From Naegleria gruberi (Eukaryota), in the NCBI GenBank assembly GCA_000004985.1, contig GG738919.1: 64,000 nt of DNA. One strand, 5' to 3'. Under the pieces are notes generated by a model. The model saw nothing but the letters and a program-made list of their open reading frames with translations, did no database searches and had not been told where the DNA came from. The stretch's first letter is position 1. Each line of letters begins with the position of its first letter. The translations under genes were made by a program, and so were the position numbers. Below, piece after piece: positions 14,668 to 63,015 of the stretch.

Positions 14668-15897
14668 ATGTTCTCACATTCAAACGATGTTGTCGATCGG
14701 CTAAATCCTGAAGAGCAATTAGCCTTGGTCACCTACCTCATCAATACAAAATTCAATTATGAGCAAAAGAAACACCTCCGACAATTATTGAATGCCTACA
14801 CTCTCTTGGCTGAATCAGATGTTATCTATGAGGTGTTTTCCTTCATTGATTTTAAAGAATTGATCAATTTGAGATTGTGTAGCCGAAAATTCAATCAATT
14901 CATCATGAGTGATGATTATTGGAGTCGAGTGTTTAATAGATATTTTAGCAATCAAGTGGCTCCTCAATCAGGAGGAATATTTAACAGATTTATTGAAGGT
15001 TAGTATTCGTAATATTTCACAACATGAAAGATTACATAAATATTTAAAGAATTGAAGAAATCACTCAGATTCAGGTTGGAACCTCTTCATGGACAGTACA
15101 TGTGGAACAAAACTTGGACCTTCCCAGATGATAATCCTTTGAAAATTGTCACATTCCAAGCAAAAGCTCAAAATGATATTCACATTAGTTTGGCAACTTC
15201 TCCACTCGTTACTAGTCCAATGTATGAGATTGTGATTGGTGGTTGGGGAAATGGTCAAAGTGTTATTAGAAGAGAAGCTCAGGGAGGAGCTTGGGCAAGT
15301 ATTGGACATCATCCCTGTAATCCTGATCAATTTTTGGATTATTGGGTCTGTCTCAACTCTGATTCTGGATGCATTTCTTGTGGAGCTGGTAAAACAGTTG
15401 GAGAACAACAATTTATGATTTTATCAGATAGTAATGTCTTGAATGTCAAGTGTGTTGGATTTACCACTTGGGATAAGCCTATTGAATACAGAAATGTGAA
15501 AACTAACTCAATTACACCATCAAGTTATGAATTTTACCTGCAATTTGGAAGTCTATTATGGCTACCAATGGTAGTCAATTCTGATGTCTTGGTTTTCAAC
15601 GTGAAACAGGGACGACACAATCTCACAATTCAATTCTCATCATTGTACAGTACCACTGAGATTTCATTTCCTACAAAATCAAAACAGAAGAAAGGAAATT
15701 GGATCAGATATTATCTTGTCTGTAGTGGAAATAGAGTTGCGAGTTATGTTGGAGAAGATGATGATAAATCAATTCCAAAACTTTATGAAACTAAACAAAT
15801 TCCAAACAATTGTTCTCAATTTGGGTTCAATTGTGATGTGGTCAATTTTAATAGAATATCATTGGAAGATTTCGGAAAACAACTCAATAAAAAGTAA
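14668..15897 (+). CDS. F-box protein with a C-terminal DM9/FAMeT-like (PF12248-like) domain; 2 exons, intron 14999..15049
   Basis: There is an N-terminal F-box (VFSFIDFKELINLRLCSRKFNQFI). A donor at GAAG|GTTAGT and an acceptor TTTAAAG| join in frame to 15050... The C-terminus contains …HISLATS…MYEIVIGGWGNGQSVIRR…, which is reminiscent of FAMeT/DUF3421 domains. Confidence 0.5.
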
Positions 15898-16275
15898 GAT
15901 TCGCAGGTTGACCATATTATTACTGTAGTCATTGTATAAAAAACATAGTTCAAAGATAACAATAGCATCATTTACAATAGGAACTGTCACGCTATTAAGT
16001 TCTTTACCAACCAAACTTCCACATCCACGTATTGAGTGTTTCTATCTCTCCTATCGAACAACCATTCAAATAACAATTATTCTCACCATAAAAGTCAATC
16101 ACGATGAAATCATTAAATAACATAGCAAAAAAATAGCACAACTTGTCCCTTCATTTTCCCTCCAAAAATAATAAGCGCTCCGAGTAGTATTTTGAGCGTT
16201 TTTGGATCGTTATTGATCATCATAAGATCTTTGAAAAAACAATTAAACAAGGAAGATCAGAGTGTGTGAGAGAAA

Positions 16276-17280
16276 ATGGGTATGTTCCACAGTACGAGTG
16301 GAAAGTGGGGTTATAATCTGCACCAGAAGAAAACTTCCTATGAGTTGAGCAAGGAAGTGGCCATTCAATTGTTGAAGGAAGAACAACGTCTTCGGAGATT
16401 GTCCTCTACTCAACAGTCATACACGGAAGCTGATACGAATTTTAGAATGCTCGAGAATATTACCTATGATTTGCAAGAGAAGGCTTTGCAGAATGTATTG
16501 GGCATTGATCATTCGGATCCAATGTGGCATGAAGCATTGATTGCCTTTAGAAATTTGAGAGCAATTTATCAAAATGATCCTGATGTGAATCAATTAACAG
16601 ATTATTTCAAGTATGACATGTCTAGAGATTTCTTTGTTCAAAAGGTTAATTTGGAAACTATCAAGATTGTAGACTTGCTTGGTTATTATGATTTTGAGAA
16701 GGAGATTAATAATTTTGATCAAATGCCTAGCTCTGAAGAATTAGTTGCAAATAATACGAAAACATTGGCTCAATTTTTAACAGAAAGAAATACCAATAAC
16801 TTACCAGTTGCAATTATTGGAAGCTCATACTCCTGACCACCGTTTAGACAACACCAGCAATATCTCTTTGAAAGTATCTTCCAAGAATTCAAAGAGAAGG
16901 TGTTTGTCATTACCATTTATATTAAGGAAGCCCACGCTTGTGACCAATGGAAATTAGGAAACAGAATTAATATCAAACAACATCAAACAAGTGAAGATAG
17001 AGTAGATGCCACTAGATTAATGATGAAGGAAATGAATTTCAGAATTCCAACCATTGTCGATTCTATTGAGAATGGTTATGAGGAAGCTTTTGCAGTTTGG
17101 CCTGAAAAGTTTGTCATTATGAACAATAATGGAATAGTCGAGTATCAATCCAAACCAGAAACATATGGACATTCTCCAACAAAATTCCGTGAATTGATTG
17201 AACTTTATTTGAGTCGTACTAATCCTCCTTCTGATAAGGCTAGTACAACTACTCCTTCTGATCTTGGTCAAGTTTTGTAA
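16276..17280 (+). CDS. Iodothyronine deiodinase-like selenoprotein; in-frame TGA (Sec) at 16834..16836
   Basis: ORFs 16276..16836 and 16900..17280 share one frame, are separated only by a TGA, and have no other stop between them. The translation …LPVAIIGSSYS-U-PPFRQHQQYLFES…VFVITIYIKEAHACDQWKL…IPTIVDSIENGYEEAFAVWPEKFVIMNNNGIVEYQSKP matches deiodinase motifs (FGSCTUPPF; YIEEAHASDGW; PERLYIIQEGRILYKG). Confidence 0.8.
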
Positions 17281-17292
17281 CTTGCATGCTTG

Positions 17293-17360
17293 TTAGAGTG
17301 TGTGACATTGACTCAAACAAATCACACGAATGTGAATCCAAGTCAATTGAAATTCTCTTA
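17293..17360 (+). promoter_or_regulatory. Candidate SECIS element in the 3'UTR of the deiodinase-like gene
   Basis: Thirteen nt after the stop there is a stem-loop. The 5' GUGA (17302-05) and 3' GAaa (17349-52) form tandem G·A/A·G pairs that flank a 7-bp helix (attgact 17307-13 / agtcaat 17341-47). Unpaired AAA lies at 17315-17317, and the apical region has a mini-stem tcac/gtga. The lower helix is ttagag/ctctta. The 5' quartet is GUGA rather than the canonical AUGA, and helix II is slightly short. Confidence 0.4.
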
Positions 17361-17481
17361 CAACATCCATTTACTAACCTTGTGTCAAGAAATAAATGTA
17401 CATTTGATAATATTTATTTAACATTGAGGATTATTTACATTATGTATTTTGTTTATACTACTAGAATAAAGATTTCAATCT

Positions 17482-17730
17482 TTAATTTTGAGATTTGGAA
17501 TCCTTATCTGGTTTTCTATATTGTTGTTCGAAAGATTTAATCTTATTCCACACTTGCTCAGTTGACCATTTATTTCCTTCTTCCTTTTCTTCACTTGATT
17601 TATTCAATTCCTCTTCTTTATGATTTGTTGAACAAGATGAGGGTTTCACATCTTCTACAAATTTCTCAACATCATACTTGTGGTAAATGTACATTCCAGA
17701 TGCAACTCCTGCCATAAAACTGAACATTTT
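17482..17730 (-). CDS. Small hypothetical protein (about 82 aa) with an N-terminal hydrophobic helix
   Basis: MFSFMAGVASGMYIYHKYDVEKFVEDVKP… followed by a K/E-rich tail. The true ATG is the second start of the listed ORF. I recognise no family. Confidence 0.3.
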   Translation of the reverse strand, partial: KMFSFMAGVASGMYIYHKYDVEKFVEDVKPSSCSTNHKEEELNKSSEEKEEGNKWSTEQVWNKIKSFEQQYRKPDKDSKSQN

Positions 17731-18512
17731 CAATATGATGTTTTGTTGTTGTTATTAAATTTAACTTGTATTTGTTTTTTTTTGTTGAGATTATTGGAAT
17801 ATTCAAGTTTACTCTATTTATAGTCAACTTTGTAAAATTGATTGAATAAAAAGAAATATTGTCAAGTTGATGATTCAAATCAAAATGGTTGTTGTTTGTT
17901 TGTCTGTTCACTAGTACATGTAGTTGATTGAATAATTTTAGGAACATGTGTTTTGATTAAATGTTTTTTTGATTATAGCATTTAACCATTTTCAAATAAT
18001 ATATATTGTTGGATTTTTGCAACTTTGAAGAAAGATTGCAAATATTTAACCAATGAGAAACAGTACATGAGCAGGACACTTGACAATTATCATGAATTTA
18101 AGTTATGTTTAAATGATTGTAAAATTTCAGAATTATTCATTCAATTAGGGTTTAATATGTTTGTTTTAGAATTGTGCATGATGTGAACTCATGTCTCCCA
18201 ATAAACACCTCTGAAAGTTTATTCTAGTAAGTAAACATGAATTTGGAAGCAACAAAATGGTTTCGTATACTTTTTATTCCGCCACTTTTTTGTCATTTCA
18301 ATGATAATGAAAGTAAACTGCACATTGACAAAGATTTGGTACATTAATGTATGGTAATTTCGAGTTTCCATAAATGTATTTTTCAAAACCGAAAGTTGAT
18401 TGGAGAGATAATATTGAAACCTAACAAAATACAAAACTAGCAATTTTTAAGAACGCAGTCATCGTATTGAGATACGTAGTAGGACTAAAAAGATTAGAAA
18501 AAACATCTCAAC

Positions 18513-22557: not shown

Positions 22558-22628
22558 GCGTCGATGGTATAGTGGTAGAATACGGCGTTGCCATCGCCGT
22601 GACCCGGGTTCAATTCCCGGTCGACGCA
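22558..22628 (+). tRNA. tRNA-Gly (anticodon GCC)
   Basis: GCGTCGATGGTATAGTGGTAGAATACGGCGTTGCCATCGCCGTGACCCGGGTTCAATTCCCGGTCGACGCA. The acceptor is gcgtcga/tcgacgc and the anticodon loop is tTGCCat. It closely resembles eukaryotic tRNA-Gly-GCC. Confidence 0.85.
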
Positions 22629-27710: not shown

Positions 27711-29004
27711 TTATTGTTGCTTGCATTCTTGTTGGCCAGCAGCAGGTTGTTCACCACCTTCTCCTTGTGGTTGAGTAAGACCAGCTTGGATTTGAGTGAG
27801 CATGTCAGCAACTTCTGGGACAGTTGAGAAATCACCTTCCTTTGGCAAAGCAACGTTCAAGAAGTAATCAACAGCGTTTGGAATAATTCTTTCCTTGAGA
27901 ATGTCTCCGATTTCAGCATCAGCTTCCAACAATTCTTGCAAGATCATGTTTTCTTCATTTTCTTCCTTTTGAATTTCTTCATCGAGATTCTTGAAGAAGT
28001 TGAAGAAAGAGTCCTTTGGTTCCTTAACTTGAATAGTTCTGGTTCTGTTTCCAGACTTGTGCTTTTGCTTCTTGGTGGTAACCTTGACAGTCAAATCCTT
28101 ACCTTCAGCCCAGGTAATTTCAGTACCTTCAGAAGTGGCAATATCTTCACTATCGGCTTCTTCGTAATAGTATGACTTGACGAGTTGAGTGTTGGTGAAG
28201 AATGGATTTTCATTGAATTGGAAGATAATTCTGAAACCTGGATTATGCTTGTAATCAATTTCTTCTTCTTCTTCTTCTTCCTTCTTTTCAGCAGATTCTT
28301 CCTTTGGCTTGGCTGGGAATTCTTCCATGACAACATTCTTCAAGAACTTCAAAGCTTCCAAATCATCTTCTTGGATCAATTCAGCCTTGATTTCAGAGTG
28401 GAGCAAAACCTTGTACCAGAAATCTGGAACACCCTTCAAATCTTCAGTCTTTTCAGTGGTAACTTCGGACAAAGCAACAGTAGACAATTCTTCAGAGGTA
28501 GCTTCAACTTCACCAGTAACAATTTCGTTTCTTCTAATAATAACTGGAGCATAGAGAGCAGCATACTTTTCTCTGAGCTTCAAGTATTCTTCTTCGAATT
28601 GCTTTTCCAAATCAGAGTACTTTTGTTGGAGGTTCTTCAAAACACCAATAACCTTTTGAGTCTTGGCTGGATATTCAGCAAGTTGCTTCTTTTCAATCTT
28701 TTCGAGTTCTTCTGGGGTAGCCTTTCTCATGAGCATTGGGTGCTATTATTATTGTTAGATTAATTGTTGTTGTCAATAGTTATAAAGTACATCAGCAGAG
28801 AGGGAATGTTCAATAATATCAAGTTGTTTCCACATCATCGTCGGTTAAAATTATTATTATTAATAAATTTCATAGATTAACTTCCTCAACATTCTAACCA
28901 GCAAAACTACTTACACCATACATTTCTTCTTCGATATCTTCTTCTTCATCGAAGTCTTCTTCTTCAGCAGGAGCAAAGTTAAAGTTGAACTTTTGTGGAG
29001 GCAT
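27711..29004 (-). CDS. NAP1: Nucleosome assembly protein 1 (NAP1 family), 2 exons: 28915..29004 and 27711..28742; intron 28743..28914
   Basis: The main exon matches NAP1 (KTQKVIGVLKNLQQKYSDLEKQFEEEYLKLREKYAALYAPV…, acidic stretches). An upstream exon encodes the acidic MPPQKFNFNFAPAEEEDFDEEEDIEEEMYG and joins in frame through GGT|GTAAGT … AATAG|. Confidence 0.8.
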
Positions 29005-62942: not shown

Positions 62943-63015
62943 GCCCGTCTAGCTCAGTCGGTAGAGCGCAAGGCTCTTAACCTTGTGGTCGTGGGTTCGA
63001 CCCCCACGGTGGGCG
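62943..63015 (+). tRNA. tRNA-Lys (anticodon CTT)
   Basis: GCCCGTCTAGCTCAGTCGGTAGAGCGCAAGGCTCTTAACCTTGTGGTCGTGGGTTCGACCCCCACGGTGGGCG is near-identical to canonical eukaryotic tRNA-Lys-CTT. Confidence 0.85.

Follow-up and report, generated by a model that had tools for sequence, protein, structure and literature searches.

The results presented here indicate that a stretch of Naegleria gruberi DNA very probably carries a genuine, previously unannotated deiodinase-like selenoprotein gene. The stretch, 64,000 nucleotides of contig GG738919.1 (assembly GCA_000004985.1), is referred to as the window. The gene lies at 16276..17280 on the plus strand, and the UGA at codon 187 would be decoded as selenocysteine (Sec) through a Sec insertion sequence (SECIS) element in the 3' untranslated region (3'UTR). 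Deiodinase-like selenoproteins in protists and the use of Sec in Naegleria are both already established. An initial annotation of the window had proposed a recoded protist selenoprotein at this site. The proposal is supported by conservation of the TGA, by the ratio of nonsynonymous to synonymous divergence (dN/dS) downstream of it and by a covarying hairpin beyond the stop codon.

The coding sequence occupies a single frame of 334 codons, Sec187 included, and closes with TAA at 17278-80. Translation bore out the description in the initial annotation: the open reading frames (ORFs) 16276..16836 and 16900..17280 share one frame, their sole interruption is the TGA at 16834..16836, and the 63 nt that link them contain no stop. 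The peptides PVAIIGSSYS*PPFRQH, IYIKEAHACDQW and PEKFVIMNNNGIVEY are all seen in the translation. Among pairs of open stretches of at least 100 codons that are split by a single stop, the window holds just one other, 27828-28763 (+), with a TGA at 28173. It was rejected as a selenoprotein candidate; it is the antisense shadow of a nucleosome assembly protein (NAP) gene at 27711-28736 (-), for which Pfam NAP gives E=4e-73, and no family match was obtained for either half of the frame. TGA is an ordinary but rare stop in the window, where it ends 4 of 32 long ORFs and TAA ends 27. A genome-wide reassignment of UGA was rejected because TGA terminates these other long ORFs.

Conserved deiodinase blocks had also been noted downstream of the TGA; the peptides quoted for them are present, and a Pfam domain continues past the TGA. 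In a search made with Cys in place of the internal stop, T4_deiodinase (PF00837, cut-off 27 bits) matched amino acids 124-310 across the TGA with 84.5 bits (E=8.8e-24), covering model positions 53-235 of 237. This thioredoxin-fold deiodinase domain corresponds to 16645..17205. The segment after the TGA matched on its own at model positions 115-235 (70.3 bits), the read-through form extended the match back to position 53, and the ORF before the TGA had no Pfam match on its own. The deiodinase domain is therefore split by the TGA. The N-terminal region, amino acids 1-123 (16276..16644), starts with MGMFHSTSGK and is without a Pfam match.

The TGA falls at the Sec position of deiodinases, as had been claimed. 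HMMER alignments to proteins of solved structure matched mouse DIO3 (4TR3, E=3.6e-12) and DIO2 (9H48, E=2e-7). The TGA, in the context UCC-UGA-CCA-CCG, aligns exactly with the catalytic Sec of both, which is Cys in the crystal constructs (GSSYS[TGA]PPF versus GSCTCPPF and GSATCPPF). By this alignment the residue would open helix alpha-1 within the motif G-S-x-x-U/C-P-P-F. Dio2 has a conserved proton relay formed by Ser127, Thr129, Tyr157, Glu160, His162 and His182, together with the stacking Trp167 (PMC11592359). The predicted equivalents are all there: Ser184, Ser186 (Thr to Ser), Tyr215, Glu218, His220 and His236, and Trp225 for the stacking residue. Glu277 is also among the deiodinase-domain residues that are equivalent by the 4TR3 and 9H48 alignment.

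The gene is found in seven lineages, N. gruberi and six others. Orthologous DNA came from N. lovaniensis (L001, 3001-3987), a near-identical N. gruberi strain from metagenome ERR1078381 (L002/L003; L002 1735-2860 versus window 16276-17400), an SRA contig with 77% identity (L004), an ENA contig with 60% identity (L005), JGI and ENA contigs with about 53% identity (L010/L011), Willaertia magna (L009, 2501-3484) and a distant SRA contig with about 34% identity (L012). The same alignment column is TGA in every one of the seven, in the context UCC/UCA-UGA-CCN-CCN. The initial annotation had asked whether orthologues carry Cys or a stop at this codon; TGA was found in all of these lineages, and Cys only in more distant full-length relatives. 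Those of its refuting conditions that were examined here all spoke for the gene. The stretch UCC-UGA-CCA-CCG-UU (16828-16845) is identical in four lineages despite saturated synonymous sites, and the UGA is always followed by C. This fixed context could be one that enhances recoding locally, or could reflect only a preference among Pro codons.

The coding region past the TGA shows purifying selection. In four lineages (N. gruberi, L004, N. lovaniensis and L005), dN/dS downstream of the TGA is 0.16-0.31 at a synonymous divergence (dS) of 0.8-1.8, at which synonymous sites are near saturation, and the part after the TGA is conserved as well as the part before it. The near-identical strain L002 differs from the window at 7 of 1125 positions, of which four are coding, all of them synonymous, and three are in the UTR. 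An exhaustive HMMER search with the 147 residues after the TGA returned 1190 relatives, 169 of them at E<=1e-10. Most of the best 150 of the 1190 are fragments of 100-150 residues that start right after the Sec position. The full-length relatives among the same best 150 have either Cys there, as in amphioxus and coral deiodinases, or W. Relatives with Cys at this position include P0041, P0095, P0128, P0161 and P0069, and the W in several full-length relatives is TGA translated as Trp. The combination of a conserved UGA, homologues with Cys and coding conservation past the UGA is the classic signature of a selenoprotein. Neither protein search returned a match in N. fowleri.

A hairpin with the layout of a type II SECIS element lies at 17295..17358 on the same strand. 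It begins 15 nt past the stop codon, ahead of an AATAAA hexamer and of a convergent gene, in what would be the 3'UTR. SECIS elements have the core consensus UGAN/KGAW, and an extra helix defines type II (PMC3753652). The N. gruberi core, UGAC/UGAA, fits this consensus with its tandem G·A/A·G pairs, and its helices I, II and III give the type II form. The hairpin is the minimum-free-energy (MFE) fold of 17281-17380, and this fold confirmed the earlier description of a hairpin at 17293-17360 with GUGAC opposite UGAA, a 7-bp helix and an unpaired AAA. Helix I pairs AGAG at 17295-98 with CUCU at 17355-58. An internal loop separates it from the core, in which GUGAC (17302-06) stands opposite UGAA (17348-51). 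Helix II (AUUGACU/AGUCAAU, 7 bp) is formed by 17307-13 and 17341-47 and is followed by a 5' bulge, CAAACAAA (17314-21), which holds the unpaired AAA 13 nt after the UGA. Helix III (17322-26/17331-35, UCACA-CGAA-UGUGA) is closed by the loop CGAA, and a 3' bulge, AUCCA, occupies 17336-40. The AATAAA at 17391..17396 (+), at 3'UTR position 111, may be a polyadenylation signal, and L004 and L005 have a similar hexamer after the SECIS.

Comparable elements follow the stop codon in the other lineages. The core is UGAC/UGAU in L010 and UGAA/UGAA in L012 and Willaertia. The AAA is invariant 12-13 nt after the UGA in five Naegleria-type lineages, and L012 has AA 13 nt after the UGA. Helix II is AUUAACUC/GAGUUAAU in L005, AUGAUCCU/GGGAUUAU in L010 and AUAA-CUC/GAG(A)UUGU in N. 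lovaniensis. In L012 the helix sequences are unrelated and the geometry is identical (AUGAA-AGUUGUUA-CAUCAA-GACC-AAU-GGUC-CUU-UAAUAAUU-UGAA). The Willaertia 3'UTR hairpin (L009 3523-3617) is very stable (z=-3.3). Its core is AUGA/UGAA, helix I has 12 bp, helix II has 14 bp and an AU bulge, and the mini-stem has 7 bp. It may be a divergent SECIS or else an AT-rich hairpin that arose by coincidence, and its assignment as a SECIS is plausible only.

The pairing of the hairpin is maintained by compensatory change. Covariation was assessed on an unfitted MAFFT alignment (A3) of five lineages and 17 pairs, with slid partners and 500 shuffles as controls. Pairing is retained in 95.1% of cells across the five lineages, compared with 26-43% for slid partners. 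Both sides have changed in 6 of the 17 pairs, two in helix I and four in helix II, and none of the 500 shuffles reached the observed covariation score. Helix III is invariant and so is uninformative for covariation. Three lineages with saturated synonymous sites share an identical 22-nt stretch, CAAACAAAUCACACGAAUGUGA. The three UTR differences of strain L002 (17301, 17328 and 17364) are all at unpaired positions: one in the internal loop, one in the loop that caps helix III and one past the 3' end of helix I.

Searches with models and patterns gave results of unequal weight. The only match of a hand-written SECIS descriptor in 128 kb is the one at this site. In composition-matched random sequence the descriptor finds about 1.8 matches per 128 kb, and the motif alone is therefore not significant. 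The match stands 22 nt past this stop codon on the right strand, a placement with a chance probability of roughly 0.003, and it recurs in orthologues; it counts by position and recurrence, not by the motif alone. A covariance model trained on these elements (R1) recovers the orthologous elements only and did not reach the divergent ones of L012 and Willaertia. Its best other window matches, at E about 2-4, were set aside as noise. A SECIS-core DNA pattern used to scan metagenomes gave three further contigs (L006-L008), which were discarded as chance matches without a DIO homologue or a hairpin.

Several observations weigh against the reading of 16276-17280 as a Sec-encoding deiodinase-like gene. 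Covariance models of SECIS from Rfam (cmscan, E<=10) gave no match on 16200-17800 or on 17281-17380; what was returned was noise, for example CRISPR-DR and miRNA. The Rfam SECIS models are built mainly on metazoan sequences, and because of this the miss is a weak negative. Folding-energy z-scores are unremarkable (-0.7 to -1.6), and the SECIS-like fold is less favourable than the MFE by about 5 kcal/mol in N. lovaniensis and L012. Nearest-neighbour energy models leave the non-Watson-Crick quartet unscored. Folding energy was dropped as SECIS evidence on account of the weak z-scores, and because Rfam gave no match and the energies are unremarkable, it is the anatomy and the covariation that carry the SECIS call. 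With 7-8 bp, helix II is short, and G takes the place of the usual A ahead of the UGA. The unpaired AA of the Willaertia hairpin is 17 nt from the core, which is a non-canonical spacing. The support is drawn from sequence, transcript evidence being indirect only, and for tRNA-Sec and the rest of the Sec machinery of N. gruberi it rests on the literature and not on the DNA of the window.

The remaining points on that side concern the substrate. The thyronine clamp (Arg275 of Dio3, Lys241 of Dio2) is not kept, the aligned residue being a Pro in a variable region. The distal Cys239 of Dio3, to which structural work on DIO3 reportedly gives a role, has Ile as its equivalent and is not conserved. 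The N. gruberi protein has a single Cys, C222 (window 16939-16941, in EAHACDQW), which is kept in four Naegleria-type lineages and replaced by Ala, Val or Ser in L010, Willaertia and L012. There is so no conserved resolving cysteine. No transmembrane-like segment is apparent by eye in the N-terminus, which is hydrophilic and starts MGMFHS. Thyronine specificity appears doubtful because of the clamp and Cys239 replacements, the variability of C222 and the lack of a visible transmembrane helix. As judged from the alignment, the missing clamp argues against thyroid hormone specifically as a substrate. It would lower the claim to a thyroid-hormone deiodinase, not the claim to a deiodinase-fold selenoenzyme, and the name deiodinase is used here for a predicted fold and catalytic apparatus, not for a demonstrated substrate.

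The machinery for Sec synthesis and insertion in N. gruberi has been published, as has a thioredoxin reductase (TrxR) selenoprotein in Naegleria (da Silva 2013, as cited in PMC4561486 and PMC8038987), and the supplement of PMC4561486 lists selenophosphate synthetase (SPS) genes of N. gruberi. The components reported for N. gruberi in the literature are tRNA-Sec, EFSec, SBP2, SPS2, PSTK and SepSecS. The 64-kb window itself contains neither genes for the Sec machinery nor tRNA-Sec. The tRNA genes in it, at 739-812, 1214-1287, 22558-22628 and 62943-63015, are Glu-UUC, Arg-UCU, Gly-GCC and Lys-CUU. The abstract of the 2013 study by da Silva et al. reportedly described only a thioredoxin reductase-like selenoprotein. 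A literature search found no paper that pairs Naegleria with deiodinase, nor one that pairs Dictyostelium with dio3. The Selenoprofiles survey of PMC4561486 took in N. gruberi and may have detected this gene without stating so in its searchable text.

Three other explanations for the in-frame TGA have to be considered. A near-cognate tRNA (for Trp, Cys or Arg) or a general mechanism of programmed read-through may decode the UGA at codon 187 without selenium, in which case the hairpin would have another role, for example in mRNA stability or localisation. A hairpin that the Rfam SECIS models do not recognise and a conserved UGA-C context are compatible with this explanation; UGA followed by C is a weak termination context. 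However, this is the position at which the family has its catalytic Sec and at which relatives carry Cys. The hairpin, moreover, has an exact UGAN/KGAW core, an unpaired AAA and the type II layout, and it covaries across lineages with saturated synonymous sites. The organism is also Sec-competent according to the literature cited above. Read-through without selenium is thus judged quite improbable, and the insertion of Sec is preferred.

It is very improbable that the TGA is a true stop, with a 186-residue N-terminal protein before it and, after it, either a fragment translated on its own or the remnant of a decaying pseudogene. Gene callers treated the codon in this manner, in two metagenome ORF calls and in the truncated N. 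lovaniensis protein, and other ORFs of the window do use TGA as a normal stop. However, the TGA splits a Pfam domain and a thioredoxin fold of which neither half is complete, the downstream part has, in the four lineages compared, a dN/dS of 0.16-0.31 and is conserved like the upstream part, and all seven lineages keep TGA rather than TAA, the stop of 27 of the 32 window ORFs. Scarcely credible, too, is an intron that removes the TGA segment to give a shorter protein without Sec. The automated annotation of W. magna (KAL9645640.1) predicts exactly such an intron. It would delete the most conserved catalytic motif (NLP..IIGSSYS-U-PPFR), which is in frame and conserved as protein in all lineages and aligns with the DIO active site, and it would leave a protein without strand beta-1 and the catalytic residue.

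The reading preferred here, a Sec-encoding deiodinase-like gene, suggests the following mechanism. A single-exon gene would encode a deiodinase-family selenoenzyme of 334 residues, and the ribosome would meet the UGA at codon 187. The type II SECIS at 17295-17358 would recruit the SECIS-binding protein SBP2 and EFSec loaded with Sec-tRNA(Sec). Sec would then be inserted at codon 187 in place of termination, and translation would run on to the TAA at 17278. The product is predicted to adopt a thioredoxin/peroxiredoxin-like deiodinase fold, with Sec in GSSYS-U-PPF at the start of helix alpha-1. Its selenolate and the conserved proton relay would most likely carry out Sec-dependent reductive chemistry. 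This may be either the reductive dehalogenation of an iodinated or otherwise halogenated phenolic substrate or a peroxiredoxin-like reduction, and neither would require thyroid hormone. The oxidised selenium would probably be reduced by an external thiol, because a conserved resolving Cys is missing.

The N-terminus offers a possible clue to location. The sequence MGMFHSTSGK is nearly invariant (window 16276-16305, L004 13-42, L001 3001-3030, L010 1919-1948, L012 58-87); it is conserved in five lineages, the distant L012 included, where it reads MGMMHSSSGK. It fits the consensus for N-myristoylation, with Gly2 and Ser6. The Willaertia model begins MFMFHYTSGK instead. As a motif, the conserved MG start suggests that an N-myristoyl membrane anchor may replace the transmembrane helix of the vertebrate enzymes.

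A wider reading is offered tentatively and may well prove wrong: the Naegleria gene would be part of a protist-wide subfamily of deiodinase-fold selenoenzymes that are anchored by myristoyl, act on a non-thyronine substrate and are decoded by a compact GUGA-type SECIS. Members may also be present in the unassigned SRA and metagenome contigs L012, P0041 and P0086. What may mark the subfamily is a conserved N-terminal domain, some 120 residues long (L-x-K-E-x-x-L-R, Y-F-K-Y-D-x-S), together with the lack of a conserved resolving Cys and of the thyronine clamp. Its substrates may be, for example, halogenated phenolics, iodotyrosine from bacterial prey, or peroxides, and its compact GUGA-type SECIS may escape current covariance models. 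If this subfamily reading is true, it points to an ancestral, pre-endocrine function of deiodinases.

The expectation that automated gene callers would mishandle such a gene proved correct in three different ways. The N. gruberi reference omits the gene, the N. lovaniensis protein C9374_007754 is truncated at the TGA, and the W. magna model KAL9645640.1 loses the active site as a false intron of 24 codons that include the TGA. Neither half of the N. gruberi gene is present in the NCBI and UniRef protein sets, and the two gene fragments are carried only by metagenome/SRA ORF calls (P0001 and P0009). The database translation of L012 shows W at the TGA. The deiodinase-like metagenome proteins P0012-P0161 are mostly fragments that start after the Sec, and several are full-length with W. 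Fragments that start after the Sec and a W at the Sec position imply, as far as these sequences can be read, that Sec-containing DIO-like genes are widely mis-called in environmental data.

The surroundings of the gene are those of N. gruberi. Adjoining ORFs exactly match the NEG-M proteins EFC37331/XP_002670075, EFC37332 and EFC37342 of a 216-kb scaffold, and GC content is about 34%. Downstream, a small convergent DUF4535 gene at 17482-17733 (-) has its stop about 200 nt from that of the DIO-like gene. The upstream neighbours at 15052-15897 (+) and 14668-15003 (+) encode a Methyltransf_FA (farnesoic acid O-methyltransferase-like) protein and an F-box protein. The N. lovaniensis locus is flanked by aldolase and GAPDH and has no synteny with the N. 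gruberi locus.

The gene would add a second family to the reported Naegleria selenoproteome, for which only thioredoxin reductase was found on record. The heterolobosean SECIS set missed by Rfam could serve as training material for SECIS detectors and as a probe for the rest of these genomes. Such mining could take in N. fowleri, a pathogen with selenoenzymes that have come under discussion as targets for drugs. That a second amoeboid lineage, unrelated to the first, has a deiodinase-fold selenoenzyme lends weight to the idea of a family older than thyroid signalling, and N. gruberi is a tractable organism for asking what such enzymes do.

The closest known counterpart among amoeboid protists is the deiodinase-like selenoprotein of Dictyostelium discoideum, which was labelled with 75Se and has a type II SECIS with an unpaired AAA (Lobanov et al. 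2007, PMC2375036). Dictyostelium is not known to make thyroid hormone (PMC2375036). It belongs to the Amoebozoa, whereas the Naegleria gene is from a different supergroup (Discoba/Heterolobosea). In the Dictyostelium SECIS elements a UGUA motif precedes the core and the mini-stem is very long; the Naegleria element shows GUGAC, a helix II of 7-8 bp and a mini-stem of 5 bp. The Naegleria protein carries an N-terminal extension of about 120 residues that starts MG and may set it apart from the Dictyostelium protein.

Like vertebrate DIO1-3, the Naegleria protein has the PF00837 domain, the predicted Sec in G-S-x-x-U-P-P-F, the proton relay with the stacking Trp, and a 3'UTR SECIS for its decoding. 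Unlike them, it shows low identity (E=4e-12 to DIO3), an MGxxxS start with no transmembrane helix seen by eye, Pro in place of the Arg275 clamp and Ile in place of Cys239. Its SECIS resembles eukaryotic type II elements in its 3'UTR site, in its UGAN/KGAW kink-turn core between helices 1 and 2, and in the unpaired adenines that precede helix 3. In contrast to the Rfam SECIS families, whose models do not detect it, it has G before the UGA and a helix II of 7-8 Watson-Crick or wobble pairs followed by a 5' bulge of 7-8 nt. The Naegleria TrxR selenoprotein comes from the same genus and the same recoding system but belongs to another protein family, with its Sec in a C-terminal redox motif. That protein, as cited in the papers named above, establishes the decoding of UGA as Sec in Naegleria.

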